This document shows, in pieces, positions 1 to 13,908 of a stretch of 14,499 bases of DNA. Position 1 is the stretch's first letter; each line of letters starts with the position of its first letter. Source of the stretch: a bacterium (GTDB taxonomy: Bacteria > Bacillota > Clostridia > Christensenellales > Aristaeellaceae). A program made the translations under genes and the position numbers. The notes beneath the pieces are model-generated. The model was given only the letters and a program-made list of their open reading frames with translations, was not told the DNA's origin and made no database searches. The stretch spans positions 1 to 14,499 of the forward strand of contig CAVFPH010000051.1 in assembly GCA_963624325.1 (NCBI GenBank), written 5' to 3'.

Positions 1-36
1 CCTCATTGGCACTGCATCCGCCTTCATCTGCCACAG

Positions 37-236
37 GCAGCGGCGGATTTGTGCCTCCCGCCGTACACGCCGCCGCTGCGGATTTCAAACGGAGGCGCTT
101 GCGCCCTCCGTTGCCTCCCGCTGAGTTACTCCTGCTTTTACGTTGACTTCAATCAATGATAAGGTGGTTCTTTGTTACTTTCTTGGCACAAGAAAGTAAC
201 GTCCCCTTCGTTCTCCCCGTCTCTCCCCGTCCCCCC
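37..236 (+). repeat. Composite hairpin repeat, 'F' orientation, 5' part probably cut by the window edge: long stem, linker, H5, tail, H6, C-rich tract
   Basis: Stem gcagcggcgg (37-46) / ccgccgctgc (70-79). H5 is aacggaggcgc..gcgccctccgtt (88-112) with a bulged C. The tail gcctcccgctgagttactcctgcttttac recurs at 6307-6330 and, reverse-complemented, at 4169-4195. H6 is gttactttctt (174-184) / aagaaagtaac (190-200), followed by gtcccc-type C-rich repeats at 201-236. Confidence 0.85.
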
Positions 237-251
237 AGAAAGGAGTATTTC

Positions 252-1442
252 ATGATACAGCGATCTGCCGCCGCGATGGCGGGTGATCTTCCCTCCGCGG
301 AGCTTTTGCAGGGTGTTCTGCGGGAGCACATCCGCGGCTGCGCGCGCCTGCAGCGTCTTCACGCCTACTATGAGGGCGCGCACGACATCCTGCGCCGCGA
401 GCGCCGCAAGGGGCTGCCCAACACGCGCATTCCCCACGGCTACCCTGCCTACATCAGCGATATGGCGGCGGGATACCTGCTGGGCGCGCCCATCCGTTAC
501 GATTACGAGCCGACAGAGGCAATCTCTCCCCTGACGCAGGCGCTGACGGCCTGCGATTCGGCCTCGGTGGATGCCGAAATTGCCATGCAGCAAAGCGTGT
601 TCGGCCGCGGAACGGAACTGTGCTACGCCGATGAAAACGCGTGCCCGCACTGCATCGCGGTGGATCCGCGCAATGCCTTTACGGTGTACAGCGATGATGA
701 GCAGGTGCGCCCGCTCTTTGCCGTCACCCTGCGCCCCGAGATTGACGCGCGGGGCAACCGCGCCGGGGTGCGCGTCACGGTGTACACCGACCGCCTGATT
801 GCCCGCTACCGCGCCGCGCAGACGGGCGGCATCCGCCATCCCTACGAAACCGTGCCGCACTATTTCGGCTTTGTGCCCTTGACCGAGTACTGGAACAACG
901 CCCGTGAGCGCGGGGATTTTGAGCGTGTCCTGCCCCTGATTGACGCCTACGACCTGCTGCAAAGCGACCGCGTCAACGATAAGCAGCAGTTTGCCGATGC
1001 CCTGCTGGTGCTGACGGGTGTCGTGGGGCTGACCGCCCCCAAGGACGGGGATCAGCGCACCCCGGGCGAGCGGCTGCGGCAGGATAAAACCCTGGCGCTG
1101 CCCGACAGCACCGCCCGCGTGGAATGGCTGACCAAGGAGGCGCGGGAGACCGATGCCGATGTCCTGCGAGAGGCGCTTGCCCGCGATATCCACAAGTTTT
1201 CCATGATGCCCGATCTGACCGATCAGCAGTTTGCCGCCAACGCCAGCGGCGTGGCCATGCGCTATAAACTGCTGGGGCTGGAGCAGCTGACGGGCGTCAA
1301 GGAAAGGTGGTTCAAGGAAGGCCTGCGCGGCAGGGTGCGGCTGTTTAACCACTATCTGAGCCTGCTGGGAGCAAGGGAAATCGTGCCCGAAAAGGTGGAC
1401 TTCATCTTTACCCGTTCCCTCCCTCTCGACGAAACCGAGTAA
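252..1442 (+). CDS. Phage portal protein (SPP1 Gp6-like family)
   Basis: 396 aa from the ATG at 252, which follows aggag (241-245) with a 6-nt spacer. The upstream in-frame ATG at 156 lies inside the repeat. Portal-like stretches include DAEIAMQQSVFGRGTEL, FTVYSDDE, YDLLQSDRVNDKQQFADALLVLTG and FSMMPDLTDQQFAANASGVAMRYKLLGLEQL. It is the first gene of a head module. Confidence 0.85.
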   Translation: MIQRSAAAMAGDLPSAELLQGVLREHIRGCARLQRLHAYYEGAHDILRRERRKGLPNTRIPHGYPAYISDMAAGYLLGAPIRYDYEPTEAISPLTQALTACDSASVDAEIAMQQSVFGRGTELCYADENACPHCIAVDPRNAFTVYSDDEQVRPLFAVTLRPEIDARGNRAGVRVTVYTDRLIARYRAAQTGGIRHPYETVPHYFGFVPLTEYWNNARERGDFERVLPLIDAYDLLQSDRVNDKQQFADALLVLTGVVGLTAPKDGDQRTPGERLRQDKTLALPDSTARVEWLTKEARETDADVLREALARDIHKFSMMPDLTDQQFAANASGVAMRYKLLGLEQLTGVKERWFKEGLRGRVRLFNHYLSLLGAREIVPEKVDFIFTRSLPLDETE

Positions 1443-1460
1443 CATCCCCTCATTCCTAAG

Positions 1461-1517
1461 ATGGTTCTTTGGTCCTTTCTTGACTCAAGAAAGGACCGTC
1501 CCCCCGTCCCCCTACCC
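1461..1517 (+). repeat. H6 leader cassette copy (hairpin plus C-rich tract) upstream of the scaffold gene
   Basis: atggttctttg, then an 11-bp stem ggtcctttctt (1471-1481) / aagaaaggacc (1487-1497) with loop gactc, then gtccccccgtccccctaccc. Same layout as 166-236 and 9947-9997. Confidence 0.85.
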
Positions 1518-1533
1518 ACAGAAAGGAGCAGCA

Positions 1534-2001
1534 ATGCCCACCGAGGACACACAAACACACGAAAATCCGCCGCCCGCCCCAAGCGACGGGGAAAGCACCC
1601 AAGGAAACGATGCGGCGGAGCGGATGCTTGCCGCCGAGCGCGCGCGCTGGGAAGCGGCGCTTCTGGAGCAGCGCACCCTGCGCGAGCAGGCGGAAGCCGC
1701 CCTGCGGGCGCAGGCAGAGCGCACCCGCGCGGGGGAAATGCGCCTGCGCGCGGCAGACGAGCTTGCGCGGCGCGGGCTTCCCCACACCCTGATCTCCGTC
1801 CTGCGCTGCGACAGCGAGGAGGCGCTCAGCGACAGCCTGAGCAGCGTGGAGCAGGCCTTCCGCGCCTCCCTGGAGCAGGGAGTGCGCGAGCGTCTGCGCG
1901 GCGCGGCACCCGCCGCCCCCGCGGAGGAAACAGGCGGCAGGCGCCTTAGCTATCAGCAGGCCGTCCGCCGCTATCAGCAGCAAAAAAATGCCCAACCCTA
2001 A
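1534..2001 (+). CDS. Capsid scaffolding protein (DUF4355-like)
   Basis: 155 aa from the ATG at 1534, preceded by gaaaggag (1521-1528). Charged coiled region, then ELARRGLPHTLISVLRCDSEEALSDSLSSVEQAFRASLEQGVRERLRG. This resembles the KRGLP..L...L..DSEE...N...F...F signature recalled for DUF4355 scaffolds. Lies between portal and capsid genes. Confidence 0.72.
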   Translation: MPTEDTQTHENPPPAPSDGESTQGNDAAERMLAAERARWEAALLEQRTLREQAEAALRAQAERTRAGEMRLRAADELARRGLPHTLISVLRCDSEEALSDSLSSVEQAFRASLEQGVRERLRGAAPAAPAEETGGRRLSYQQAVRRYQQQKNAQP

Positions 2002-2017
2002 CCGAATAAGGAGGTAA

Positions 2018-3151
2018 ATGAACATGTCCGTAACCACTGTATCCAATATGATCATTCCCGAGGTCGTCTCCTCCCTGATTGACAGCAGCCTGGGCGACGG
2101 TGTCACCCTGCTCCCTTTGACCGAACAGGATGATACCCTGGTGGGTCAGCCGGGCGATACCCTGCGCTTTCCCGTGTTTGCCTACATCGGCAAGGCCGCC
2201 GTGGTGGCCGAAAACGGTCAGGTGATCCCGGGTCAACTGACGGCCAGCATGAAGAGCGTCACGGTGCAAAAGTACGCCAAGGCCATCTCCATTACCGATG
2301 AGGCGCGATTGTCGGGCTACGGCGATCCGGTGGGCGAGGGCAGCCGCCAGCTGGCGCACGCCCTGGATCATGCCGTGGATGACGATCTCTTCCAGTGCCT
2401 GAATGATGCCGGCGTTGCCCGCAAGTACGTGTCGGGGGCGCTGAGCGCCGATGTGATTGCCGACGCGCTGACGCTGTTCGGCGAGGATCCCGAGGGGCGC
2501 AAGGTGCTGTTGACCGATGCCGCCGGCCTTGCCGCCCTGCGCAAGGATCCCGATTTTGTCGGCCGCGGGGATATGGGCGAGGAGCTGGTCATGCACGGCG
2601 CCAAGGGCGAGGTGTGGGGCTGCGAAATCGTCATCACCAATAAGGTGCGCGAGAACCCGAAAACCAAGGAGAAAAGCTATTTTATCGTAAAGCCCGGCGC
2701 GCTGCGCCTGGTCAACAAGCAGGGCGCGATGGTGGAAATCGACCGCGAGCCCGAGTACATGCGCGATAACATCTTTGCCTCCCTGCACTGCGTGCCCTAC
2801 CTCTACGACGAAAGCAAGGTGGTGGCCATCACCCGCTTTACGGGGCTTTGCGTGCTTACCGAGGATGCGCAGAAGCTGGGCTTTGAAACCGCGGCGGCGG
2901 GCAGCGGCAAAACGCGCATTGTCATTCCCCCTGCCTGGACGGCGCCCTCCGGCTGCCGCTGGGTGTATACCCTGAACGCCTCCGCCGCCGAGGAGGGCAG
3001 CTACGATACGGTGTACAGCGCGGGCACCCCCTGGGGCGGCAATGACGCGCAGGTGGCCGCGGGCGGCAAGGCGTACTGCCATCTGCTGCTGCTGGACAGC
3101 GAAAACAAGCCCGTCAAAACGCTCACCCTTGCGGTGAACGCGGGCGTGTAA
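2018..3151 (+). CDS. Major capsid protein (HK97-fold type) with a C-terminal extension
   Basis: 377 aa. Strong SD aaggagg at 2008-2014. The ATG at 2018 is only 3 nt downstream, so the second ATG at 2024 may be the true start. Position directly after the scaffold gene. The N-terminal MSVTTVSNMIIPEVV...LPLT...GDTLRFPVF...A pattern is typical of Firmicute phage capsid proteins. Confidence 0.78.
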   Translation: MNMSVTTVSNMIIPEVVSSLIDSSLGDGVTLLPLTEQDDTLVGQPGDTLRFPVFAYIGKAAVVAENGQVIPGQLTASMKSVTVQKYAKAISITDEARLSGYGDPVGEGSRQLAHALDHAVDDDLFQCLNDAGVARKYVSGALSADVIADALTLFGEDPEGRKVLLTDAAGLAALRKDPDFVGRGDMGEELVMHGAKGEVWGCEIVITNKVRENPKTKEKSYFIVKPGALRLVNKQGAMVEIDREPEYMRDNIFASLHCVPYLYDESKVVAITRFTGLCVLTEDAQKLGFETAAAGSGKTRIVIPPAWTAPSGCRWVYTLNASAAEEGSYDTVYSAGTPWGGNDAQVAAGGKAYCHLLLLDSENKPVKTLTLAVNAGV

Positions 3152-3166
3152 AGGCAGGCGAAGGGC

Positions 3167-3475
3167 ATGACCTTGGATGAAATGCTGGCCTGCCTGCACA
3201 GGCTGCTGGATGTGGATGAAAAGCAGGATGAACTGCTCTGCGATCTGCTGGCCGATGCCAACGCGCTGATGCTGGCCTATATCGGGCGGGAGGAGCTGCC
3301 AAGCGCCCTCTCCCGCGCGCAGTGCCGCCTGGCGGCGGTGCTGTATAACCGCCTGGGCATGGAGGGGGAAAGCCGACGCACCGAGGGCAGCGTCACCGTC
3401 ACGGTGGATACCCTGCCCGAGGATATATTGACCCTGCTGCGCCCCTTCCGCCTGGCCGGGACGGTGAGCCTATGA
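3167..3475 (+). CDS. Head-tail connector / DNA-packaging protein (phage gp6-like)
   Basis: 102 aa. Helical pattern L..LL.VDE...DELL..LL.DA...M..YIGREELP.....RLAAVLYNRLG.EG resembles gp6-like head-tail connectors. Position after the capsid gene. ATGA overlap with the next gene. Confidence 0.68.
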   Translation: MTLDEMLACLHRLLDVDEKQDELLCDLLADANALMLAYIGREELPSALSRAQCRLAAVLYNRLGMEGESRRTEGSVTVTVDTLPEDILTLLRPFRLAGTVSL

Positions 3476-3810
3476 TGCGCCCGCGCCGACGCACCCGCTG
3501 CGTGCTCTATGCCGCCCGCTGCGTGCCCACAGAGGATGCCATCGGCGGGATCACGGCAGGCTACGCCCCCGAGCGCCGCCCCCTGCGCGGCACGATGATC
3601 CCCCGCACAAACCGTGATGTGCCCCGCATCCCCGGGCTCTGCCGGCAAAGGGAGGCCGACTTCCTGCTTTCCCCCGATGCCGATATCCGCGAAAGGGACG
3701 GCCTCTACGCCTCCGAGGCCGATCCCCTGCCCGCCTGGCGCGTGGCCGGGATAGACCGATACCCCCTGCACCTGTGCGCACGGCTGGAGGAGGCGGGCGC
3801 GAATGCGTAG
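3472..3810 (+). CDS. Putative head closure / head-tail adaptor protein
   Basis: 112 aa. Call rests on position between the gp6-like and gp10-like genes, on size, and on overlaps with both neighbours. No motif recognised with certainty. Confidence 0.45.
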   Translation: MMRPRRRTRCVLYAARCVPTEDAIGGITAGYAPERRPLRGTMIPRTNRDVPRIPGLCRQREADFLLSPDADIRERDGLYASEADPLPAWRVAGIDRYPLHLCARLEEAGANA

Positions 3811-4123
3811 CATCGGCATCCCCGCCTATCGCAAGAACCTGCAAAAGCGCATCGAAAACGCCCTGCAAAACATCGCCCGCGATGCGCAAATCCGCGCCCG
3901 CGCCGCCGTCCCCCTGGGCGACGGCCGCGACGGCGGACACCTCAGAGACTGCATTCTGGCGGACGCCGCCTTTGACGGCACGCGCGGCTATGCGCAGGTG
4001 ACCGCCGAAAACCCCCACGCCGCCTATGTGGAACTGGGCACCATCCATATGCCCGGGCTGCATTACCTGACGAACGCGCTGAACGAGACGGAGGGAAAAC
4101 GCTGGATACGTTACTTTCTTTAG
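3803..4123 (+). CDS. HK97 gp10-family tail/neck component
   Basis: 106 aa. The ...A...AR..VPLGDGRDGGHLRD.I........G.A.V......HAAYVELGT pattern resembles the HK97 gp10 family. The last ~13 codons and the TAG stop (4121-4123) lie inside the reverse-oriented H6 repeat. Confidence 0.62.
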   Translation: MRSIGIPAYRKNLQKRIENALQNIARDAQIRARAAVPLGDGRDGGHLRDCILADAAFDGTRGYAQVTAENPHAAYVELGTIHMPGLHYLTNALNETEGKRWIRYFL

Positions 4124-4380
4124 GAAAGAAAGTAACAAAGAACCATCTCAAAACCACTCAATGTCTACTTAAAAGCAGAGTAACTCAGCGGGTGGTCAAG
4201 GCGGGCGCGAGCGCCGCCTTGTTAAATCCGCAGCGGCGGCGTGTACGGCGCGAGGAGAAAATTCGCGAAGGAGGTTCCCTCCGAGAGCGAATTTTCATTC
4301 CTTACGTTTTTCACGGCCGTCAGCGCAGCTGACAGTGAAAAACGCAAAAAATCCGTTAAAAGTCGCGGACTTTTAACGGC
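4098..4380 (-). repeat. Most complete single copy of the composite hairpin repeat ('R' orientation on the + strand): H6, tail, H5, linker, H4, H3, A-run, H1
   Basis: H6 gttactttctt (4110-4120) / aagaaagtaac (4126-4136). H5 aaggcgggcgcgagcgccgcctt (4198-4220). H4 gaaaattcgc (4257-4266) / gcgaattttc (4287-4296), inner ggagg/cctcc. H3 cgtttttcac (4305-4314) / gtgaaaaacg (4335-4344), inner gtcagc/gctgac. H1 ccgttaaaagtc (4353-4364) / gacttttaacgg (4368-4379). Confidence 0.9.
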
Positions 4381-4396
4381 ACATCCGAAAGGAGTT

Positions 4397-4756
4397 ATGA
4401 TGATCGATTTGACCAACACCCTGCGCTGCGCGGTATCCGCCGTTGTGCCCTGCACGCAGGCCTACCCCGCGCGCGCGGCGGCCTTCCCCAGCGCGGCGGT
4501 GTACGAAAGCGGCAATGCCGTGCAGGCGCGCTGCAACGGCGGCGATTACCTGAGCGCGCTGGAATACACCGTTGAAATCCGCGCCTATGCCCCGGGGGAT
4601 ACCCACGCGCTGTCGGTACGCGTGGATGAGGCCGTCGGCGCGCTGGGCTTCAGCCGCGTATCCTGCACGGATCTCTACGACAGCGCCCTGCGCGTGCATC
4701 GCCGCGTGATGCGCTACCGCGTGCTGTGCGATGCGGACGGCACGCTCTATCAGTAA
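4397..4756 (+). CDS. Putative tail terminator / tail completion protein
   Basis: 119 aa from the ATG at 4397 after aaaggag (4388-4394). The upstream part of ORF 4241.. is repeat sequence. Sits immediately upstream of the major tail gene. Small alpha/beta-looking protein. Call is by position only. Confidence 0.4.
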   Translation: MMIDLTNTLRCAVSAVVPCTQAYPARAAAFPSAAVYESGNAVQARCNGGDYLSALEYTVEIRAYAPGDTHALSVRVDEAVGALGFSRVSCTDLYDSALRVHRRVMRYRVLCDADGTLYQ

Positions 4757-4769
4757 GGAGGAAAAAAGC

Positions 4770-5183
4770 ATGCCCACAAAAACCATGGGAACGGTGTTTT
4801 CCCTGACGCCCGCAGGCGGCGAGCGCACGCAGATCGGATATCTGACCTCCATCGGCGAAATCGCCTGCGACAGCGAAATGATTGATATTACCACCCTGGA
4901 TCGGCAGGACGGCTGCCGCGTTTATATGCAGGGGGTGCGGGACGCGGGCGAAATGCGCCTGACGGGCTTCCACCGAAAGGACGCGGGCGGGCAGGCGCTG
5001 GTGCGCACCCTGTACAGCAGCGGCAGGGAGGCCGTCGCGCGCGTCGATTTTGCCGACGGCACGGCCTTTGAATTCCCCGTGCTCGTCAAGGGCTGGTCCC
5101 TTGGCGCATCGCAGGTGGAGGGCGCGGTCAGCTTTGCCTGCACCCTGCGCTTAAACGGCGCCGTAGAAAGCGTGAGCGCATGA
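4770..5183 (+). CDS. Major tail (tube) protein
   Basis: 137 aa from the ATG at 4770 after taaggagg (4754-4761). GTVF.L.......T.IG.L.SIGEI..DSE.IDITTLD resembles phi13/TP901-type major tail proteins. Followed by a chaperone-like gene with an ATGA overlap. Confidence 0.6.
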   Translation: MPTKTMGTVFSLTPAGGERTQIGYLTSIGEIACDSEMIDITTLDRQDGCRVYMQGVRDAGEMRLTGFHRKDAGGQALVRTLYSSGREAVARVDFADGTAFEFPVLVKGWSLGASQVEGAVSFACTLRLNGAVESVSA

Positions 5184-5680
5184 TGCCCCGCTATGCTGAA
5201 ATATTGAACCGTGCCTGGCCGCTGAGAATCACCCTTGCAAGCGCCGTGCGCGCAAGGGAAATCGGCGGCAAGCCCCTGCGGGAACTGTGCGCGGAGGGCA
5301 TGCCCGGCACATTGCTTTTGCTTTATGCCGCCCTGGCCGGGGAGCGCAAAAGCGTGACCCTTTCCCAGGCGGCGCGCCTGCTGTCCGCCGCCGCAAAGGA
5401 TCGGGATACCCTGGATGCCCTGCTCTCCGCCCTGACGCTGGCGCTTCGGGACAGCGGCTTTGACTGGGCGGACATCAGCCGCGAAGGGGTTGAGCGCCTC
5501 ACCCATGCCGCCCTGCGTGCAGGCTGCCCCGGGGCGGCGGAACTGCCTGACATGGGCTATACCGACGCGTTCGCCCTGATTTGGCGCTTTTTGAAGGATA
5601 GGCACGAAACCCCCGCCCCCATGGACGATAAAGATATGCAGTCCCTGCTGCGCGGCATGGCGAAGGGAGGCAAAAAATGA
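5180..5680 (+). CDS. Tail assembly chaperone (gpG-like)
   Basis: 166 aa directly after the major tail gene. The N-terminal LRITLASAVRAREIGGKPLREL pattern is typical of Firmicute phage tail chaperones. Ends in GGC AAA AAA TGA, with the next ORF in the -1 frame. Confidence 0.5.
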   Translation: MMPRYAEILNRAWPLRITLASAVRAREIGGKPLRELCAEGMPGTLLLLYAALAGERKSVTLSQAARLLSAAAKDRDTLDALLSALTLALRDSGFDWADISREGVERLTHAALRAGCPGAAELPDMGYTDAFALIWRFLKDRHETPAPMDDKDMQSLLRGMAKGGKK

Positions 5681-6090
5681 CCACCCTGGATACCCTGTGC
5701 GTGCGCCTGGAGGCCGAGGCGGGGGATGTTTTCGGCAAACTGGACACCCTGGAAACGCGCCTGCATGCCCTGCGCGGGCAGGGCGCGCAGACAATCTCCC
5801 TGCCCGCAGATCTGGAAATGCGCCTGACCGTCGCGGCGGATGATGCCGTGTCCGCCGCGCTTGCGGGCGCAGGCGAAACGCTGGCCGCCGCCGTCGCGGG
5901 CCACGATGCGCAGCTGGGCGCGGCGCTCGCCTCGGCGCAGCAGGCCCTGGCCGATGCCCTTACCGCCGCCGTCAACCGCCTGTCCGCCTCGCTTAACGTT
6001 ACCGTACCGGTCTATATCGACAGCACCCGCGTGGCAAATGCGGTGGTGGGAAATGTGAAGCAAAAACTAATGATGAAGGGAGGCCGTTAA
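5677..6090 (+). CDS. 137-aa Ala-rich helical protein: either a miniature tape measure protein or the T-domain of a G/GT chaperone pair
   Basis: Has its own SD gggagg (5664-5669), about 7 nt before the ATG at 5677. Predicted coiled and Ala-rich (AADDAVSAALAGAGETLAAAVAGHDAQLGAALASAQQALADALTAAV). C-terminal VPVYIDSTRVANAVVGNV. The TAA stop (6088-6090) lies inside repeat hairpin H1. Confidence 0.4.
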   Translation: MTTLDTLCVRLEAEAGDVFGKLDTLETRLHALRGQGAQTISLPADLEMRLTVAADDAVSAALAGAGETLAAAVAGHDAQLGAALASAQQALADALTAAVNRLSASLNVTVPVYIDSTRVANAVVGNVKQKLMMKGGR

Positions 6091-6335
6091 AAGTCCGCTT
6101 CGCGGTCTTTTAACGGGTATTCCGATAAAAATCTGCGGATTTTTATCGGGGTTTGGCGGATTTTCTTGTGCGCCGATGGCGCACGGGCAGAAAATCCGTA
6201 AGGAATGAAAATTTCCTCTCGCAGGAAACCTGCTTCGGAAATTTTCTCCTCCCGCCGTACACGCCGCCGGTCCGGGTTATAAACGGAGGCGCTCGCGCCC
6301 TCCGTTGCCTCCCGCTGAATTACTCTGCGATAAGC
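6084..6335 (+). repeat. Composite hairpin repeat, full 'F' copy: H1, H2, H3, H4, linker, H5, tail
   Basis: H1 6084-6116 (14 bp, one T/T mismatch). H2 ccgataaaaatc (6122-6133) / gatttttatcgg (6138-6149). H3 cggattttct (6157-6166) / agaaaatccg (6189-6198), inner gtgcgcc/ggcgcac. H4 gaaaatttcc (6207-6216) / ggaaattttc (6237-6246), inner gcagg/cctgc. H5 aacggaggcgc..gcgccctccgtt (6282-6306). Confidence 0.9.
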
Positions 6336-6363
6336 AGCCAAGCGGGACTGCACTTCAAAACAA

Positions 6364-6628
6364 ACTTGGCGGGTGGTCAAGGCGGGCGCGAGCGCCGCCT
6401 TGTTAATTCGTATCGCGGGGCAGGTTTCGCCTGTTTCCATCGGCATTGCCGATCAAGCTATTGGGCGAAGCCGTGAAAAAGCGGCAATGCCGTCCGCGCG
6501 GGCGGGGAAAATCCGCGAAGGAGGTCTCCTCCGAGAGCGGATTTTCATTCCTCTCAGATTTTCTGACCGTGAGCGCAGCTCACAGGAAAATCTGCAATAC
6601 CCGTTGAAAATCGAAAGATTTTCAACGG
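6364..6628 (-). repeat. Composite hairpin repeat, full 'R' copy with an extra ~70-nt insert: H5, insert, H4, H3, H2
   Basis: 6364-6420 is identical to 12833-12889 (57 nt). The insert carries stem ggcattgccg (6441-6450) / cggcaatgcc (6482-6491). H4 6507-6546. H3 6555-6594. H2 ccgttgaaaatc (6601-6612) / gattttcaacgg (6617-6628). Confidence 0.9.
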
Positions 6629-6644
6629 CAAAAAAGGAGCTTTT

Positions 6645-6998
6645 ATGTCTTTACTCACCCTGAACAGCGCATCCCTGCCCGATCCCACCGCGCTGACGGT
6701 GGAAATCGGCGATGCGCTCTCCTCCGTCCGCCGCACGCTGTCGGGCACGGCGTGCGTCACCCGCGCGGGCATCAAGCGCCGCGTGCGCATCCGCTGGGCG
6801 GTGATGACGCCGCAAAACCTGACCGCCCTGCTGACCATCCTGTGCGGGGATGCCGTTGTCACCCTGGGCTACCCCGACCCCGTGACGGGCGATGGGCGGG
6901 AAATGCGCGCCTACTGCGAAAAGCGCAGCGTCGGGCTTTACCGCGGGGGCAGCGATCCTGTGTGGACAGCCGTTGAAATCACCTTGCAGGAGGCCTGA
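6645..6998 (+). CDS. Putative minimal distal tail protein (Dit-like)
   Basis: 117 aa. SD aaggag at 6634-6639. Lies immediately upstream of the large hub/fibre gene (stop 6996-6998, next ATG 7001). Call is by position only, and the protein is small for a Dit. Confidence 0.35.
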   Translation: MSLLTLNSASLPDPTALTVEIGDALSSVRRTLSGTACVTRAGIKRRVRIRWAVMTPQNLTALLTILCGDAVVTLGYPDPVTGDGREMRAYCEKRSVGLYRGGSDPVWTAVEITLQEA

Positions 6999-7000
6999 AC

Positions 7001-9895
7001 ATGAATTGCCAACAGGCTTTTTACGCGGAAAACCGCACGCTCAGCGCCTGCGGCACCATCACCCTGTGTACGGGCTACGAAATCCCCCTTACGGCTTCGG
7101 ATATCCTTGATTTTGAGGTCACAGGCGGCGTGCAGGGCGCCATGCTCTGCGGCAGCGCGCTCAGCGCCTATGGCAGGCTCACATTGGCTAATCCAAACGG
7201 CGCGTGGCTGCAGGGCGGCGAGCGCCTCGGCACGCGCACGCTGAGCGGCGCCGCGGTGAAAATCACCCTTTGCGCCGCGGCGGACGGGCAGGAATATCCT
7301 GTTCCCTGCGCGCGCTTTCTGGTGCGCGATATCCAAAGCGGCGAGGGCGAGGATACTATCACCCTCTCGGGCTATGACGAAATGCTCACCTGCCTGTCCG
7401 TGCCCTTTTCGGATGATATGACCTACCCCCAAACCCTGGGCGCGCTGGCGGAAAATATCATCCGAAAAACCGGCCTCCCCTGCGAAACCCTGCCTGCCTG
7501 CAATGCCGATGCCGTCTTGTCCGCCGCCCCCGACTGGGGCGAGGGCTGCACCCTGCGCCGCGCGCTCAGCATGGTTGCCGGCGCCATGGGCTGCTTTGCC
7601 TATGTTGCCCCGCAGGGCAGCCTTTGCCTGAAACCCGTGTGGCAGGCACCCGAGCGCACCCTGACGGCGGGCAGCTGCTTTTCCCTGTCCCTCTCCTGCG
7701 CGGATTTTGTCCTGAACCGCCTGCGCGTCACCGATGCCGCGGGGAATGTCTTGGCCGATGCCGCCTTTGATGCCGCCCTTCCCGCCGCCGCCGACAACAC
7801 GCTGGAAATCAGCGGCAGCGCGGTCTTTGCCGTCGGGGATGCCGATGCCATGGCGCAGAACATCCTAAAATCGCTTCACGGCATGACGCTGACGCCCTTT
7901 GAGGGCGAACTGCCCGCCGATCCCACCCTGCGGACGGGGGACTGCGTGGAATGGACAGATCTTCGCGGCCGCGCGCACCTTTCCTGCATCCTGCAGTGCA
8001 CATTGACGATGGGGCAGGAGGGCACGGCGCGCATCACCTGCGATCCCGATGCCTCGGGCGTCAGCCTGCCCCAGGCGCTCTCGGGCAGCGGGCTTTTGGG
8101 CGGCGGGCTGCTTGGGGATGGGGTCATCACCGCCCGCAATCTGGCCGTCGGCGCGGTGGATGCCGAGCACATCGCCGCCCGCAGCATCACGGCGGATAAA
8201 ATCGCCCCCGGCACCATCACCGCCGAAAGCGGGGTCATCGGCAGCCTGTCGGCCGATCTCATCACCGCCGGCAAGCTGGATACCGATCGGCTGATTGTGG
8301 GCGGCACCGAGTTTTCCATCGTCCGCGCCCTGAACCAAATGCCCAAGGAGGCCGCCGGGCAGGATAACCGCCTGAGCGGGGAGGTGCTGGCAGGCGGCAC
8401 GGTCTCCCCCGATAAGGTAACGGCGGATTTCGGCACGGGCATTGAAATATCGGATAACGCCGCCCTCCTTTTGCTTGCGGGCAAGCTGGACGGCACCAAC
8501 AGCCATATGGAGCTTACGCAGGATGCCATCAACATGGTGGGCGGGGATATCAACATTGCCACCGACAGATTGCAAATCCGCGGCGTCACCGACGGCGAGG
8601 AGCGCATGAGCCTGGACGGCGAGGGTCTAAGCGCCCTGCGCGTGGTGGTCAGGGAGCGCTTTTCCGCCCCCAACGCAATGCTGAAATGCCTGACGGATAC
8701 CGCCCCGTGGCAGGGCGGCGTGCAGGCCAGCCTGGATGCCCTGCCCAAATACCTGACACGCAAAACCACCCTGCGCATCCCCGCGGGCAGCTATGCCGAA
8801 AACGTCACGGTATCGGGCTTCTGCGGGGAAGAAATAATCCTCCTGTTTGAAAGCGGCGCGTATTTGAATGGCGCCGTCACCGTGCAGAACTGCGGCAGCG
8901 TCACCCTGACAGCCGTAAATTTGGGGGATGGCTGTATCTATTCCGCGGACGCGCAAATCCCCCTGTCCGCCGTATGCGTACAGCAGCTGACCGTCAGCCG
9001 CCTGTACCTTTCGGGTGACCGCGCGCGCACGCAAAGCGGCGGCGGCAGCGCGTACTGCCTGCAGGCGCAGGGCTGCAATACGGATGTATCGGGCTGCGGC
9101 CTGGAGTATGCGGACACGGCCTGCCTGCACGTGCTGGGCGGCACCGCCTGCCTGCGGGACTGCCTTGGCGGCTGCACGGGCAGCAACCCCGCCACCAACG
9201 CCAACCTCGGCACGGCGGCGCTGGGCGCGCGCGGGGCGCACATTGCAGTCTCGGGCACCGTCCCCATGACTTTGGGCGGCACCTGCGGGGAGGATTCGCA
9301 GGCATCCTATTGCACGGGCGCGCTGGGCACGCAGACGGCGGGCGGCATGCGCCTTCCCGGCGGCACCCCCATCACCCGCACCTTTGCGCCCTCCTTCCAC
9401 TGCAGCTATTCGGGCACCAGCCGCAAGGCCTACCCCGAAAACAACCTCATCTGGCAGGGCGTGTACAAAGCCTACCGCCGCGGGTACAACGATTTCAACA
9501 CCGGCACCCTGTGGTTTGAGGAGGCCGCGCAGGCGCTGCAGGGCAAAACGGTGCGGCAGGCTACCTTGACCATCCGCCGCGCCAACGGCGGCTCGTCTGA
9601 TGCGCGCAATGTGTATCTGGGCACGGTCAAGCTGCTGCAAAGCGACTGGCAGACCACCTATCGTCCGGAGTTCATCGCCCCCGAAACCCTGCCCGCCTAC
9701 CCCGCGGGAACGCTCAAACGCGAAACCGAGGGCACGTTTGACGTAACCGGCCTGATGGCGGGCGTGCAGCAGGGCTATGGCATCGGCGTGTATGAGCCCT
9801 GCGCCGCCTACAGCGGCAGCAGCTCGGCGCACTATACGCAGTTTTACGCGCTGGGAAGCGACTACGTGCCCATTCTCACGGTCACGTATGAATAA
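7001..9895 (+). CDS. Tail hub / tail-associated fibre protein (Tal-like N-terminus, fibre repeats, beta-helix-like region, C-terminal putative receptor-binding domain)
   Basis: 964 aa. The N-terminal ~350 aa resembles siphovirus prophage-tail (Tal / Gp37-like) hubs. Residues ~370-430 carry I.A..I repeats (ITARNLAVGAVDAEHIAARSITADKIAPGTITAESGVIGSLSADLITAGKLDTDRLIVGG) typical of phage fibres. Residues ~600-760 are Gly/Cys-rich and beta-helix-like. Confidence 0.75.
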   Translation: MNCQQAFYAENRTLSACGTITLCTGYEIPLTASDILDFEVTGGVQGAMLCGSALSAYGRLTLANPNGAWLQGGERLGTRTLSGAAVKITLCAAADGQEYPVPCARFLVRDIQSGEGEDTITLSGYDEMLTCLSVPFSDDMTYPQTLGALAENIIRKTGLPCETLPACNADAVLSAAPDWGEGCTLRRALSMVAGAMGCFAYVAPQGSLCLKPVWQAPERTLTAGSCFSLSLSCADFVLNRLRVTDAAGNVLADAAFDAALPAAADNTLEISGSAVFAVGDADAMAQNILKSLHGMTLTPFEGELPADPTLRTGDCVEWTDLRGRAHLSCILQCTLTMGQEGTARITCDPDASGVSLPQALSGSGLLGGGLLGDGVITARNLAVGAVDAEHIAARSITADKIAPGTITAESGVIGSLSADLITAGKLDTDRLIVGGTEFSIVRALNQMPKEAAGQDNRLSGEVLAGGTVSPDKVTADFGTGIEISDNAALLLLAGKLDGTNSHMELTQDAINMVGGDINIATDRLQIRGVTDGEERMSLDGEGLSALRVVVRERFSAPNAMLKCLTDTAPWQGGVQASLDALPKYLTRKTTLRIPAGSYAENVTVSGFCGEEIILLFESGAYLNGAVTVQNCGSVTLTAVNLGDGCIYSADAQIPLSAVCVQQLTVSRLYLSGDRARTQSGGGSAYCLQAQGCNTDVSGCGLEYADTACLHVLGGTACLRDCLGGCTGSNPATNANLGTAALGARGAHIAVSGTVPMTLGGTCGEDSQASYCTGALGTQTAGGMRLPGGTPITRTFAPSFHCSYSGTSRKAYPENNLIWQGVYKAYRRGYNDFNTGTLWFEEAAQALQGKTVRQATLTIRRANGGSSDARNVYLGTVKLLQSDWQTTYRPEFIAPETLPAYPAGTLKRETEGTFDVTGLMAGVQQGYGIGVYEPCAAYSGSSSAHYTQFYALGSDYVPILTVTYE

Positions 9896-9896
9896 G

Positions 9897-9925
9897 CCGA
9901 TGAAAGCCATTCGGCTTTCATCAGG
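9897..9925 (+). terminator. Possible weak intrinsic terminator after the fibre gene
   Basis: 10-bp stem gatgaaagcc (9899-9908) / ggctttcatc (9913-9922), loop attc, 4 nt after the TAA at 9893-9895. The downstream U-tract is poor (aggcttacccctgctttt). Confidence 0.3.
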
Positions 9926-9930
9926 CTTAC

Positions 9931-9997
9931 CCCTGCTTTTACAGATGGTTCTTTGGTCCTTTCTTATCGCAGGAAAGGACCGTTCTCCCCGTTTCTC
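9931..9997 (+). repeat. H6 leader cassette copy upstream of the holin gene
   Basis: ccctgcttttac, then agatggttctttg, then stem ggtcctttctt (9955-9965) / aggaaaggacc (9971-9981) with one G.U on the + strand, loop atcgc, then gttctccccgtttctc. Confidence 0.85.
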
Positions 9998-10011
9998 AGA
10001 AAGGAAATCGT

Positions 10012-10425
10012 ATGCAAAAATACATAAAGCCCCTGATCGGGGCAATCGGAACAATCGGCACCTACCTTGTGTATCTGCTCGGCGGCTGGGATGCCGCGCT
10101 GACGGTCATGTTTCTGCTGATGGGCTTTGACTGCCTGACAGGGCTGCTGACGGCCTTTGCGGGCAAGAGCGACAAGACGCAGGGGGGCGGCTTTCGCTCC
10201 TCGGCGGCGTTTGCGGGCATCAGCAAAAAGATGATGATGGTGGTCATCGTGATGCTCGCCACGGCGCTTGACCGCCTGACGGGGGACAGCGGCGTGTGCC
10301 GCAGTGCCGCCATCGGCTTCTATGCCGCCAATGAAGGCTTGTCCATCCTGGAAAACGCCGCCGCGCTGGGCGTGCCTTTTCCCAAAGCAATCACGGAGGC
10401 GCTGGAAGCGCTCCGTGACCGATAA
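10012..10425 (+). CDS. Holin, phage holin family 4 (TcdE-like)
   Basis: 137 aa. Three hydrophobic segments. MGFDCLTGLL.AF, S....GI.KK....V.V.LA...D and ..FY.ANEGLSILENAA.LGVP.P match the pattern recalled for the toxin-secretion/phage-lysis holin family. The last ~11 codons and the stop fall inside hairpin repeats. Confidence 0.8.
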   Translation: MQKYIKPLIGAIGTIGTYLVYLLGGWDAALTVMFLLMGFDCLTGLLTAFAGKSDKTQGGGFRSSAAFAGISKKMMMVVIVMLATALDRLTGDSGVCRSAAIGFYAANEGLSILENAAALGVPFPKAITEALEALRDR

Positions 10426-10501
10426 AAGTTTTCAACTTTTATCGGGTAGCCGCTGAAAATCTGCAAAAAAAACCGTTAAAAGTCGTCAGACTTTTAACGG
10501 C
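10391..10501 (-). repeat. Compressed composite repeat bridging the holin 3' end and the recF 3' end: H5-like, H2-like, half-H3, A-run, H1
   Basis: H5-like tcacggag(g)cgc (10391-10402) / gcgctccgtga (10408-10418) with a bulged G. H2-like ccgataaaagtt (10419-10430) / aacttttatcgg (10435-10446). gctgaaaatctgc matches an H3 3' arm. H1 ccgttaaaagtc (10473-10484) / gacttttaacgg (10489-10500). Confidence 0.8.
10463..10501 (-). terminator. Intrinsic terminator of recF (H1 hairpin plus a run of 8 T on the - strand)
   Basis: The - strand reads ccgttaaaagtctgacgacttttaacggttttttttgcag. It is a 12-bp stem followed by a run of 8 T. The recF TAA stop (10494-10496) sits in the 5' arm. Confidence 0.7.
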
Positions 10502-11597
10502 CCTGCGTTATTTCTCCGTTGTGTACCTTCAGCACCGCCTGGGGCTTTGCGCCCGTCAGGTCGGACAGGTCTGTGCAGGTCAGCAGCGTCTGCACGCCGC
10601 GGATGCGCTCCAGCAGGCGCGCGCGGCGGCCAAGGTCCAGTTCGCTTAGCACATCGTCCAGCAGCAGCAGGGGCCCTTCCCCCTGCCGCGCGGTCAGCAT
10701 GTCCAGTTCGGCCAGTCGCAGGGCAAGCACGGCAGTGCGCATCTGTCCCTGGCTGGCAAAGGCGCGCATTTCCTGCCCGCACAGGGTCAAAACCAGGTCA
10801 TCCCGATGCGGCCCCACGGTGCTGGTCATGCGGCGAAGATCCTCCTCGCGGCTTGCGTGCAGCAGGCGCAGAAAATCCTCCCGCGGCTGACTGCTTTCGC
10901 ACAGGCAGCCGCTGTAGCGCAGGGAGAAGCCCTCCTCCGCCCGCCCGCTGATGCAGGCATAGTGCCCGGCGGCCAGGCTGTTCAAATTCTGCGCGGCGTA
11001 CTGCCGCGCGCGCACCACCGGCACGGCGGCGGATGCCAGCTGCTCATCCCAGGCATCCAGCTGGGCAAGGTTCCCGCCGCGGGACAGGTCACGCAGCAGG
11101 GCGTTTCGCTGCTTCAGGGCGGCATTGTAGGTTTGCAGGGCGTAGTAATACCCCGCCCCGCACTGGGAAAGCAGCATGTCGGTAAAGCGCCGCCTGCCCT
11201 GGGGCGCGCCGCGCACAATGTCCAGATCCTCGGGGGAGAACATCACGCACGTCACATGCCCCATCAGCTCCCCCGTGCGCGCGGCGGTCTTGCCGTTGAT
11301 GTATATCAGCTTGCGCTTTTTCTGCATGGGGGCGTACAGGCGCACGCCCACCTCGTCCACCCCGTCCCCGCGCTGCACGCGCACCTGCACGGCGGCGGTT
11401 TCCTGATCCGCGCGGATCATCTCCCGATCATTGGCCGTGCGGTGGCTGCGCCCCAGGCAGCACAAATGCACCGCTTCCAGCAGGTTGGTTTTGCCGGCGC
11501 CGTTTTCGCCCACAAACACCGTAACCCCCTCGGGCGGCGACAGCAGCACCTGATGATAGCTGCGGAAATCGTGCAGGCGCAGGGTTTTCAGCTGCAT
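10494..11597 (-). CDS. recF: DNA replication and repair protein RecF
   Basis: 367 aa. MQLKTLRLHDFRSY, Walker A GENGAGKTNLLEA, SGR...F.L.Y, and LLLDDVLSELD signature / Walker B. Full length. Confidence 0.95.
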   Translation of the reverse strand: MQLKTLRLHDFRSYHQVLLSPPEGVTVFVGENGAGKTNLLEAVHLCCLGRSHRTANDREMIRADQETAAVQVRVQRGDGVDEVGVRLYAPMQKKRKLIYINGKTAARTGELMGHVTCVMFSPEDLDIVRGAPQGRRRFTDMLLSQCGAGYYYALQTYNAALKQRNALLRDLSRGGNLAQLDAWDEQLASAAVPVVRARQYAAQNLNSLAAGHYACISGRAEEGFSLRYSGCLCESSQPREDFLRLLHASREEDLRRMTSTVGPHRDDLVLTLCGQEMRAFASQGQMRTAVLALRLAELDMLTARQGEGPLLLLDDVLSELDLGRRARLLERIRGVQTLLTCTDLSDLTGAKPQAVLKVHNGEITQGR

Positions 11598-12055
11598 TAC
11601 TTGTGATACCTTTCGTTTGCGTTGATTTTGTGGGCGCGGTAGATCTGCTCCAGCAGCATCACCCGCGCCAATTGATGCGGAAACGTCATGGGGGACATTG
11701 ATATCCGGCAGTCCGCGCGGGCAATCACCGCGCTGTCCAGCCCCAGCGATCCGCCGATGACAAACACCACCCGCGCCCCGCGCATGGCGCGCTCCCGAAA
11801 AAAGGCGGCAAGGGAGGGGCTGTCCGTCATTTTGCCGTCAATGCACAGCGCCGCCACGTAGTCATCCGCCCGAATGTGGGCAAGCATGGCCGCGCCTTCC
11901 TTTTTCATGGCCTGCGCGCCCTCGCTTTCGGGCTGATCGGGCACCTCAATGATTTCCAGCTTGGCGTAGCGGCTCATGCGCTTCTGATACTCGGCGGCGG
12001 CATCCCGCCAATAGCTTTCGCGCAGGCGTCCCGCGCACACAATGGCTATCGGCAT
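11597..12055 (-). CDS. rlmH: 23S rRNA (pseudouridine1915-N3)-methyltransferase RlmH (SPOUT family)
   Basis: 152 aa from the internal ATG at 12055 (MPIAIVCAGRL...). The listed longer ORF is an Arg/Gly-rich extension. IGGS.G, MTFPHQLARVMLLEQIYRA and the C-terminal YHK are typical of RlmH. The stop overlaps the recF start (TAATG). Confidence 0.9.
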   Translation of the reverse strand: MPIAIVCAGRLRESYWRDAAAEYQKRMSRYAKLEIIEVPDQPESEGAQAMKKEGAAMLAHIRADDYVAALCIDGKMTDSPSLAAFFRERAMRGARVVFVIGGSLGLDSAVIARADCRISMSPMTFPHQLARVMLLEQIYRAHKINANERYHK

Positions 12056-12693
12056 AGGATGATCCGCGCCGCCTCCCGCAGGTTCTCGCACACCGCGTCG
12101 CAGAAGGGCGCAAGCTCGGGGGTGTAGGGCTGCATATCGGGCACCATCACGGTGAACGCCCCCGCCGCGCGTCCCGCGCGCAGGCCTTTGGGGGAGTCTT
12201 CCAGCACCGCGCACTGATTGATGGGCACGTTCAAAAGCTCGGCCGCCCGCAGGAACATGTCGGGCGCGGGCTTGCTGGGCAGGCCGATATCGCAGGGCAC
12301 CAGCGCCTCAAAATAATCGCTGATGCCGGCGCTGGCCAGGTTGCGTACCACCTCGCTGGTCGGGCTGCCCGATGCCACCGCCATGCGCAGTCCCGCCTGA
12401 CGGAAAGCCTCCACCGTCTCCTTCAGGTAGGGCTTTTCGGGCGCGCCGTGCGCCGCCACATAGCGGTTGCCCGCCGCGCGGTAGGCAGGCCAAAAGTCCT
12501 CGGGACGGTAGGCGGGAATCAGGGGCGAAAGGTATTCGTCCACCGCCTTTTCGCTGGTGCCCAGGGTGTGCAGGATCATCTCCTCCGTAAGTTCATACCC
12601 CAGGGAGTGCGCCACCTCGCCTGCCAGCTTGCCGAACAGCCGCTCGGTGTCAAACATCAGTCCGTCCATGTCAAAGAGTACCGCGGTAATCAT
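12046..12693 (-). CDS. HAD-superfamily hydrolase, subfamily IA (phosphatase / beta-phosphoglucomutase-like)
   Basis: 215 aa from the ATG at 12693 with SD aggagg (12701-12706, - strand). MITAVLFDMDGLMFDTE gives the DxDG motif I. ASGS fits motif II. VLEDSPKGLRAGRAAG fits motif IV. Overlaps the rlmH start by 10 nt. Confidence 0.85.
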   Translation of the reverse strand: MITAVLFDMDGLMFDTERLFGKLAGEVAHSLGYELTEEMILHTLGTSEKAVDEYLSPLIPAYRPEDFWPAYRAAGNRYVAAHGAPEKPYLKETVEAFRQAGLRMAVASGSPTSEVVRNLASAGISDYFEALVPCDIGLPSKPAPDMFLRAAELLNVPINQCAVLEDSPKGLRAGRAAGAFTVMVPDMQPYTPELAPFCDAVCENLREAARIILCR

Positions 12694-12722
12694 ATAAAAC
12701 CTCCTATCGGTTGCAGTAACAA

Positions 12723-13057
12723 AGGAAAATCCGCCATAACCCGTTGAAAATCGCAGATTTTCAACGGAATAACGGCTCGTCCGACGAGCATAGCCTTTTG
12801 GTACGCCCCTTCCAAGCAAGACAGCAGAAGTAACTTGGCGGGTGGTCAAGGCGGGCGCGAGCGCCGCCTTGTTAATTCGTATCGCGGGGCTTTGCCGCGC
12901 GGGCGGGGAAAATTCGCGAAGGAGGTTCCCTCCGAGAGCGAATTTTCATTCCTCTCAGATTTTCCGGCCGTGCGCTTTGCGCACAGGAAAATCTGCAATA
13001 ACCCGTTGAAAATCGCAGATTTTCAACGGAATAACGGCTCGTCCGATGAGCATAGCC
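12723..13057 (-). repeat. Composite hairpin repeat in a housekeeping intergenic region, arranged as a 262-bp-period partial tandem duplication
   Basis: 12736-12795 equals 13000-ish copy 12998-13057 (60 nt, one mismatch, 12785 c versus 13047 t). Similarity extends back to 12723 / 12985. Between them are H5 (12848-12870), H4 (12908-12947) and H3 (12956-12995). H2 occurs at 12741-12767 and 13003-13029. Confidence 0.9.
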
Positions 13058-13895
13058 ACGCACCTGCGATCATGATCCCCAGCGCCGCCAGATAGCTTGC
13101 CTGCGGCACCTCGCGGAAGATGATCAGCGACAGCAGCGCCCCGATAAAGGGGGATACCGCGTAGTACGCGCTGGTGCGCGCCGCGCCCAGCAGCCGCTGG
13201 GCATACACGTAAAAGTAAATGCTGAGCCCGTAGGCCACAAACCCTACCGCCAGCACGGGCAGAATCAGGGAAAGCGAGGGCATCCTCTCCCCGCAAAGCA
13301 GAGCGATGATTACCGAGCCCGTGCCCGAAAAAATGCCCTTCAGCAGCACAATCTGCAGGGGATCCTTGCCCGACAGCCGCCGCGTGCAGTTGTTTTCAAA
13401 TCCCCAGCACACGCACGCCAGCAATATCAGCAGCGATCCCGCCGAAAAGCGCAGGCTTGCCGCGTCCTCCACCGACAGGATGGCGCAGCTGACCGCCGTA
13501 AACAGGATGCCCGCCCACAGCCGCGGGCTGACGGACTCCCCGAAAATCACCAGGGCGATGATCGCCGTGGCCACAATCTCAAAATTGTTAAGCAGCGAGG
13601 CCGCCGCCGCCGAGGTGGATTTCAGCCCCAGCATCAGGCACACGGGCGCGGCAATGTCCAGCAGGATCATGGCCGCCGTCCAGGGCAATTCCCGCCGTGT
13701 CAGGCGCAATTCCCGCCCCTGCTTTCCCCGCAGACGCCGAAAAAGGGCAATAAGCACCATGCCGATCCCCGCCCCGATGTAGAGCAGCCCCGCCATGACA
13801 GTGGGCGGCACGGACACCAAAAGCAGCTTGGACAGCGGCGCATTCAGCGCGTAGAGCGCCGCGGCCAGCAGCGCCAGCGCAATCCCCCTGCGCAT
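13023..13895 (-). CDS. EamA/DMT-family transporter (about 10 TM)
   Basis: 290 aa from the ATG at 13895, SD aggaggggga (13901-13910, - strand). Hydrophobic throughout. ALLAAALYALNAPLSKLLL and SAYYAVSPFIGALLSLIIF are typical of the two EamA repeats. The last ~11 codons and the TGA stop lie in repeat sequence. Confidence 0.85.
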   Translation of the reverse strand: MRRGIALALLAAALYALNAPLSKLLLVSVPPTVMAGLLYIGAGIGMVLIALFRRLRGKQGRELRLTRRELPWTAAMILLDIAAPVCLMLGLKSTSAAAASLLNNFEIVATAIIALVIFGESVSPRLWAGILFTAVSCAILSVEDAASLRFSAGSLLILLACVCWGFENNCTRRLSGKDPLQIVLLKGIFSGTGSVIIALLCGERMPSLSLILPVLAVGFVAYGLSIYFYVYAQRLLGAARTSAYYAVSPFIGALLSLIIFREVPQASYLAALGIMIAGAWLCSSDEPLFR

Positions 13896-13908
13896 CAAAC
13901 TCCCCCTC

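Follow-up and report, generated by a model that had tools for sequence, protein, structure and literature searches.

The window analysed here is a 14,499-nucleotide stretch (positions 1 to 14,499 of the forward strand) of contig CAVFPH010000051.1 from an Aristaeellaceae assembly (GCA_963624325.1). At a G+C content of ~63-65%, it carries a phage-like operon on the plus strand, followed by host genes on the minus strand. The subject of this work is the tail module of that operon (4770-9895), and above all the short protein that occupies the slot of its tape measure gene. The module opens with the gene of the tail tube (major tail) protein (4770..5183, plus strand as all operon genes below; 137 aa; Pfam Phage_tail_2; phrog_158, E-value (E) 1e-17), which shares 34% identity with the tail tube protein of Paenibacillus phage PG1. 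It closes with a 964-aa protein (7001..9895), assigned as a tail tip or hub protein with fibre-like and C-terminal domains (phrog_6616, fibre PHROGs). Between these two, an initial annotation of this DNA had placed three open reading frames (ORFs) of 166, 137, and 117 aa together with a 554-nt gap, and these coordinates and lengths are correct. Its description of the remaining ORFs as intact and coupled also holds: the reading frames overlap by ATGA at 5180 and 5677, a 2-nt spacer lies at 6998/7001, and orthologues have the same size.

A 137-residue protein in the tape measure slot

In long-tailed phages, the length of the tape measure protein sets the length of the tail, at ~0.15 nm per residue. 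The gene in the corresponding position of the window (5677..6090) encodes only 137 aa and is annotated as a miniature tape measure protein on account of a family profile match to a long tape measure and its slot. Fifty homologues were retrieved with a word index, all of them short (80-202 aa, most ~139 aa) and with identities down to 46%; those under ~130 aa are deletion alleles or fragments. When 1.8 billion representative proteins were searched exhaustively with an HMMER profile, 18 matches were obtained. The full-length relatives among them measure 131-178 aa only, and the search returned no long protein with the N-terminal motif of the family. The remote relatives share an N-terminal MxxLDTLxVxFxA and a C-terminal VPxxVDGxxLG, which flank a variable middle rich in Ala, Gly, and Ser. 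Likewise, no long tape measure gene occupies the corresponding gene slot of any orthologous cluster.

The connection to genuine tape measures is provided by an 11.7-kb contig fragment from IMG/VR (L027; L numbers denote loci and P numbers family proteins). Its genes encode, in this order, homologous tube proteins, two chaperone-sized ORFs, an ORF of 1220 aa, and a homologue of the 117-aa protein (E 8e-38). The 1220-aa ORF is a phrog_1535 tape measure (E 1.9e-54), and the hidden Markov model (HMM) of the miniature family matches its residues 1-101 with an independent E-value (i-E) of 5.7e-7, the alignment opening with MATTLEELEIKFKASFGDV... against MTTLDTLCVRLEAEAGDV... A profile restricted to the close family aligns to the same protein with 42% identity between residues 2-34 and 3-35. 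At the opposite terminus, the remote members P0060 and P0062 match the extreme C-terminal end of phrog_1535. Moreover, a 184-aa member (L024/L025) matches phrog_1686, phrog_5493, and phrog_4372 (E 7e-19 to 3e-10), and family members of 171-184 aa bridge the 137-aa protein and the long tape measure. PG1 (a 37.6-kb phage record) carries a tape measure of ~840 aa in the same slot. Membership in the tape measure class rests on these profile links and intermediate members, not on direct family matches. Together, they identify the 137-aa protein as a genuine homologue of tape measures, which appears to keep the N-terminal ~100 and the C-terminal ~35 residues and to have lost roughly 1,000 residues from the center.

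The features by which tape measures are recognized are largely present, as the protein has the family homology, lies between a chaperone and a distal tail gene, and is mainly helical. The AlphaFold2 model consists of the helices 4-34, 44-105, and 116-135 and has no globular fold match in the PDB. Its length departs from the class: tape measures have hundreds to >1,000 residues, compared to 137 aa here and 95-184 aa across the family.

A frameshift (T) extension of the chaperone was considered as an alternative identity of this ORF and rejected. A strong Shine-Dalgarno site lies 6-9 nt 5' of the ATG of the miniature gene in every lineage, and a CAAAAAA run at the junction of the two genes occurs in the window lineage only. 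Because conservation extends to the Shine-Dalgarno site but to no slippery site, the 137-aa ORF is not a frameshift extension. The initial annotation had envisaged that this ORF might prove to be a chaperone T domain only, with a full tape measure gene in orthologous clusters. Instead, it has its own Shine-Dalgarno site and the gene is short everywhere.

The family also contains naturally shortened forms. In-frame deletion alleles of 95, 98, and 109 aa (P0046, P0045, and P0035; L017-L019) keep both termini. The 95-aa allele corresponds to the gene at 10001-10420 of L001 and arose by loss of 132 nt, or 44 codons, in frame between two GATACGCTG repeats (139 to 95 aa). It is found in at least 20 contigs from several samples, where the neighbouring genes are intact, and fits a ruler-like tolerance of internal deletions.

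A protein whose center can lose 44 residues might also serve other purposes, namely as a channel plug or needle or as an assembly adaptor, while tail length would depend on a long tape measure encoded elsewhere or on no ruler. The short tape measure of the gene transfer agent (GTA) RcGTA, which has tail-needle-like features (PMC7296036), lends this alternative some substance. However, the homology of the 137-aa protein extends to the two ends of a genuine tape measure, and its gene lies in the exact tape measure slot, with the chaperone gene before and the distal tail gene after it. Tape measure genes of known siphoviruses are linked to their chaperone genes, and in the profile search no long protein had the N-terminal motif of the family. 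We therefore consider a role other than that of a ruler unlikely.

The two flanking genes support the assignment of the slot. The 166-aa protein (5180..5680) is annotated as a tail assembly chaperone from its profile match to a G-type ORF and its location downstream of the tube gene and upstream of the tape measure gene. In its family profile, the first ~95 residues align with the full 99-aa G-type chaperone ORF of L008 (hhalign 96%, E 3e-9), and its C-terminal end shows a weak match to the end of the second ORF of that locus (105 aa). This pattern suggests a fused G-T chaperone in a single ORF. Hence, the earlier description of the protein as chaperone-like is upheld for its N-terminal half, the T-like match of the C-terminal half being weak. 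The 117-aa protein (6645..6998; phrog_1194) is annotated as a distal tail protein from its predicted fold and its match to a PG1 ORF. Its AlphaFold2 model, with a predicted local distance difference test (pLDDT) score of 90.9, displays a tail-tube fold formed by a β-barrel and one helix. By Foldseek, it resembles baseplate-proximal ring proteins, a 116-aa chain in the T1 tail tip, lambda gpM (8iyk_E), and tail proteins of RcGTA. By hhalign, it pairs with a PG1 ORF of 119 aa located 3' of the tape measure gene (98.8%, E 1e-16). Owing to this fold and the Foldseek matches, the 117-aa protein is predicted to be a minimal, lambda-gpM-like distal tail ring. Further downstream, residues 6-343 of the 964-aa hub protein match phrog_6616 (tail protein), and residues 370-475 match fibre PHROGs. 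Its N-domain is related to the 617-aa ORF located 3' of the distal tail gene of PG1 (BLASTP E 2e-7); a tblastn search of this domain against GenBank phages gave no match.

Conservation and chromosomal setting of the cluster

Relatives of the cluster were recovered mainly with alignments as queries. Scanning genome contigs with a single protein returned nothing, and the alignment-based scan returned four loci in metagenome-assembled genomes (MAGs); for the 117-aa protein, a single query found one match and an alignment query was needed. An alignment of the tube protein recovered further related loci. In orthologous clusters from MAGs, metagenome contigs, and IMG/VR (L001-L007, L013-L016, L020, and L022-L026), the order of the genes is unchanged and their sizes differ little, with divergence down to ~45% identity; sizes and order are identical in L001, L005, L006, L007, L014-L016, and L020. 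The carriers are MAGs of uncultured gut Clostridia, among them GCA_963620175.1, GCA_963614755.1, and the SFIM01, CAKUFG01, and JAFXJP01 MAGs. The tail ORFs are real genes, since orthologues of the same size and order exist in at least eight diverged lineages. The short tape measure gene thus appears to be the ancestral and conserved state, as judged from these comparisons. Against its L001 counterpart, the miniature tape measure shows 74% identity and a ratio of nonsynonymous to synonymous substitution rates (dN/dS) of 0.26; the tube, distal tail, and chaperone proteins are less conserved. The branch of the initial annotation in which a tape measure gene is missing through simple decay is not supported: all orthologous clusters have the short gene, which is homologous to the ends of a long tape measure.

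Four loci include both flanks (L001, L002, L007, and L020). In these, the cluster spans 11.7-12.2 kb. It opens with a conserved ORF of 71 aa and the gene of a 414-aa large terminase (TerL), and closes with the holin gene. The order in relatives is small terminase (TerS) candidate, TerL, portal, scaffold, capsid, connectors, terminator, tube, chaperone, miniature tape measure, distal ring, hub/fibre, and holin. The spore cortex-lytic genes sleB-ypeB directly adjoin the cluster upstream in all four, that is, in every relative with a visible upstream flank, and this adjacency may reflect either co-regulation with sporulation and germination or mere synteny. As the window itself starts past the upstream flank, the evidence for this neighbour comes from the loci of its relatives. 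Host genes also form the downstream flank, with the rnf operon in L007 and L020. Integrase, excisionase, repressor, and replication genes were found neither in nor beside the cluster in the full-flank loci, which contain packaging, head, tail, and lysis genes only, placed between host operons.

The sequences of the element point in the same direction as its location. Pairwise identities of its proteins vary in parallel with those of the neighbouring host proteins, L007 and L020 being mutually closest and L002 more distant, which is consistent with co-divergence of element and host. In comparisons of the window with L001 or L007, Nei-Gojobori dN/dS values are 0.17-0.66 for all 13 genes, as approximate figures with synonymous sites near saturation. 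G+C content and G+C at third codon positions (GC3) are 0.652 and 0.804 for the element genes, and 0.648 and 0.814 for the adjacent host genes. The hallmarks expected of a GTA, vertical inheritance at a fixed locus under purifying selection, are accordingly visible in the sleB-ypeB neighbour of the relatives, in dN/dS values below 1, and in host-like GC3.

These data bear on whether the cluster is mobile, as a minimal phage or a capsid-forming phage satellite that would package its own ~12 kb of DNA. Fragments of the cluster are indeed listed as viral contigs in IMG/VR, and a TP901-1-like capsid could hold 12 kb. Yet in the full-flank loci, neither the cluster nor its immediate surroundings include genes for integrase, excisionase, repressor, or replication functions. 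The same sleB-ypeB neighbour persists upstream in lineages at 50-74% identity, the divergence of the element tracks that of the host, and GC3 equals that of the host. In addition, the cluster encodes a full tail module of its own, unlike capsid-forming phage-inducible chromosomal islands (cf-PICIs), and its flanks are devoid of the integrase and replication genes of such satellites. Mobility is quite unlikely in our view.

The 554-nt gap between the miniature tape measure and distal ring genes (6091..6644) proved to be unrelated to the question of the ruler. A ~210-nt dispersed repeat, present twice in inverted orientation (6118-6328 and 6363-6628), makes up the gap, and the sister strains L010 and L009 lack this insertion. 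With the window, these strains share 99.4% identity, the recF-proximal context, and the genes. At the gap position, these strains have 76 and 37 nt, and the more distant orthologous clusters 10-15 nt. The insertion site corresponds to a small hairpin already present in L010 and L009, and the ribosome-binding site of the 117-aa gene is kept in the window despite the insertion. An Rfam scan of the gap matched no family. The gap is a recent, strain-specific insertion of host repeat elements, and no gene has been lost from it, because sister strains and distant clusters have short spacers and the Rfam scan is negative. Of the earlier statement on a repeat gap, the 554 nt of repeats stand, whereas the gap is not a fixed feature of the module. 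A hidden tape measure remnant or an RNA gene in the gap was likewise rejected, as it is made of dispersed repeats that sister strains lack and is Rfam-negative.

The same repeats could be taken as a sign of a decaying prophage remnant, in which a large internal deletion of the tape measure has left the particle non-functional and the other ORFs have merely not yet decayed. Host repeats have inserted between genes of the cluster, the 137-aa protein resembles a tape measure with its middle deleted, an amidase is missing from the window lineage, and the additional 44-codon deletion allele would add to this picture. However, every repeat insertion is intergenic and leaves the ribosome-binding sites in place. 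Length and order are conserved for all 13-15 genes, none of which is disrupted. Many lineages, diverged to 45-50% identity, descend from an ancestor with the short form, and dN/dS lies below 1 throughout, the miniature gene being among the most conserved. Decay is very unlikely to account for this combination.

Thus, the region is probably the tail module of a domesticated, chromosomally fixed head-tail cluster of ~12 kb that resembles a GTA and has a miniature tape measure. The cluster is best read, as we infer from its gene content and evolution, as a domesticated producer of GTA-like particles rather than a decaying prophage. The branch of the initial annotation in which the 137-aa protein is the ruler of a GTA-like element finds in silico support in homology, slot, conservation, and the hallmarks of domestication.

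Several points weigh against this interpretation. The 137-aa protein alone has no meaningful match in Pfam, PHROGs, NCBIfam, a PDB sequence search, or Foldseek, and the AlphaFold2 confidence of its model is moderate (pLDDT 68). A tblastn search with the remote member P0062 against GenBank phages gave no match either. At the C-terminus, the HMM match to the last ~35 residues of the L027 tape measure (...LNVDGQVLGRVAIKGINQATRAAG..) is weak (domain i-E 1.4), as is the best alignment of the miniature family to the PG1 tape measure, which falls on its very C-terminus (hhalign E 0.07). The 95-aa allele is common in one lineage; the central part is thus not strictly constrained, and the allele could be a sign of relaxed constraint or loss of function. 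Searches for a long tape measure covered cluster slots and protein representatives, and an unlinked gene may exist elsewhere in the genome. Further, the window lineage has no counterpart (9896-10011) of the amidase found in L007 and L020, and the L001 lineage likewise has a holin only. TP901-1-like capsid proteins normally build full-size heads. Finally, the particle, its tail length, and its DNA cargo are predictions from the genes.

Head, neck, and lysis genes

Upstream of the tail module, the window encodes a series of head and neck proteins. The portal protein is of the SPP1 type (252..1442; Pfam SPP1_portal, E 4e-75; phrog_64, E 4e-100). Its ORF is open from 156, and the start at 252 is the equivalent of the gene calls in the sister strains L009 and L010. 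It is followed by a head scaffolding protein (1534..2001; Pfam DUF4355; phrog_172) and a TP901-1-like major capsid protein (2018..3151; phrog_544, E 6e-56), which shares 38% identity with the TP901-1 major head protein over residues 1-277. Past the part alignable to capsid proteins of the TP901-1 type (272 aa), the capsid protein extends by ~100 C-terminal residues (~278-377; window 2849-3151), which may form a fused decoration or Ig-like domain. Three head-tail connectors (3167-3475, 3472-3810, and 3803-4123; Pfam Phage_connect_1 and HK97-gp10_like; phrog_132 and phrog_5) and a 118-aa tail terminator or tail completion protein (4400..4756; phrog_78; Tail_completion_gp17 on orthologues) come next. 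For the terminator, a longer ORF (4241-4756) opens inside a repeat copy, and the orthologues place the true start at 4400.

The terminase region is absent from the window, where the contig ends in repeats. Three independent assemblies break just upstream of the portal gene, where a repeat copy sits. In the relatives, the 71-aa ORF lies directly 5' of the large terminase gene (L001 1950-2165, L020 2711-2926, L007 ~3366-3581) and is 62% identical between lineages. No Pfam match is on record for it, and it is a candidate for a very small TerS.

The final gene of the cluster encodes a holin (10012..10425; Pfam Phage_holin_4_1, E 1e-31). Between hub gene and holin, relatives carry an Amidase_3 endolysin (L007 13741-14457, L020 13239-13967); the endolysin of the window and L001 lineages is lost or relocated. 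Past the holin, the minus strand carries the host genes recF, rlmH, a HAD hydrolase gene, eamA (EamA transporter), and pcp (pyroglutamyl peptidase), as assigned by Pfam.

Two types of repeats punctuate the window. Besides the copies in the gap, the ~210-nt repeat occurs in intergenic positions at 43-217, 4093-4383, and 12720-13057, and its copies carry terminal hairpins (e.g. CCGTTGAAAATCGCAGATTTTCAACGG). Copy number varies among the 99.4% identical strains, the window having extra copies at 6150-6600 and ~12796-12981 compared to L010 and L009. Because of this difference between such close strains, the family looks like an active element, similar to miniature inverted-repeat transposable elements or repetitive extragenic palindromic (REP) elements. 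In addition, short palindromes (GGTCCTTTCTT...AAGAAAGGACC) occur at junctions of cluster genes: before the portal gene (174-200), between portal and scaffold genes (1471-1497), after the third connector gene (4110-4136), and between hub gene and holin (9955-9981). They could be terminators, attenuators, or REP-like elements.

Proposed tail assembly and comparison with known systems

A working model of the tail can be built on the siphovirus assembly pathway of lambda, TP901-1, and SPP1 (PMC8718954). The 166-aa chaperone would hold a trimer of the miniature tape measure, which would nucleate on the hub and the distal ring. Tube hexamers would then polymerize along the tape measure until it is covered, and the terminator would cap the tube. 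At ~0.15 nm for each of its 137 residues, the ruler would specify ~20 nm, equivalent to ~4-5 rings (~27 residues per ~4-nm ring), so that the tail would be non-contractile and very short, like that of RcGTA.

More tentatively, the clusters may constitute a previously undescribed, independently domesticated GTA family of spore-forming gut Clostridia, with the shortest tape-measure-templated siphovirus tail known, and a possible genetic basis of the GTA-like DNA packaging recently reported from gut Oscillospirales and Christensenellales. This proposal includes the ~4-5 tube rings from the 137-aa ruler and even shorter tails from the 95-aa alleles. If it is true, the loci are concrete GTA candidates for gut taxa other than Faecalibacterium. 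Moreover, tail miniaturization by gutting of the tape measure would have arisen independently of RcGTA, as a convergent signature of domestication that is usable for bioinformatic searches. The forms of 137, 95, and 171-184 aa offer a natural minimal system to define the indispensable parts of a tape measure; those that survive are the N-terminal ~100 and the C-terminal ~35 residues.

To our knowledge, GTAs are well characterized almost only in Alphaproteobacteria. RcGTA resembles the present cluster in that both are chromosomally fixed head-tail clusters of ~12-15 kb without integration or replication genes, and both combine a siphovirus-type tail, including tube protein, distal ring, and large hub, with a drastically shortened tape measure. 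The RcGTA tape measure g11 (Rcc01694) has 216 residues, arranged as a 113-residue helix followed by segments of 83 and 20 residues, and fills five tube discs (PMC7296036). The protein described here is shorter, with 137 aa (95 aa in one allele), and has no equivalent of the 83-residue β-region. Despite these similarities, there is no detectable sequence relationship between the two systems. The RcGTA head is HK97-like with a protease, in contrast to the TP901-1/SPP1-like head of the present cluster, which also has two tail tip genes compared to four (g12-g15) in RcGTA. Further differences are the Gram-positive, spore-forming host and the holin, joined by an amidase in relatives, inside the cluster. 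The present cluster is a strong candidate GTA.

A 2026 study reported GTA-like packaging of host DNA to be widespread in gut Clostridia, with random fragments of 4.6-8.9 kb in Ruminococcaceae, Oscillospiraceae, and Christensenellaceae (PMC12946183). Of the loci responsible, one has been identified, FpGTA of Faecalibacterium prausnitzii (proteins RCH50844-50852), and MAGs of Onthomonas and Gemmiger yielded none (Borodovich et al. 2026, PMC12946183). FpGTA is described as resembling a podovirus: it has a nozzle protein and no visible tail, and its genes form two operons ~125 kb apart (PMC12946183). It shares with our cluster the setting of a gut Oscillospirales element, a compact terminase-to-capsid operon, a tiny TerS candidate, and GTA-like biology that is shown or suggested, and its major capsid protein bears the same broad family label (N4-gp56 family) as that of TP901-1. 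The 71-aa ORF also recalls the TerS proteins without DNA-binding domain described for RcGTA and FpGTA. Unlike FpGTA, the present cluster is a single operon with siphovirus tube, terminator, chaperone, tape measure, and distal tail protein. Identity of the two is ruled out by architecture, namely the nozzle and the two operons, which sets them apart by description rather than by sequence. A 2026 preprint reports a 12.7-kb Butyricicoccaceae cluster (QXXE01), from terminase to holin and endolysin, as a candidate GTA or satellite, and does not analyse its tail. In the limited library of literature searched, no description of a miniature tape measure in Clostridia was found.

The closest relatives by sequence are the siphoviruses represented by phrog_1535/L027 and PG1, which have a homologous tube protein, distal tail protein (phrog_1194), and hub N-domain in the same gene order. 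The ends of their tape measures (1220 aa in L027, ~840 aa in PG1) align with the 137-aa protein, which misses ~700-1,080 central residues. Internal in-frame deletions that keep both termini of the tape measure, as in lambda gpH and the TP901-1 tape measure protein, give assembly-competent and proportionally shorter tails, and the natural 139-to-95-aa allele has the same anatomy. The TP901-1 deletions are cited in PMC8718954. The deletions in lambda gpH and TP901-1 are modest relative to the protein, while here the loss would amount to ~90% of the ancestral length, in a state that appears to be evolutionarily stable.

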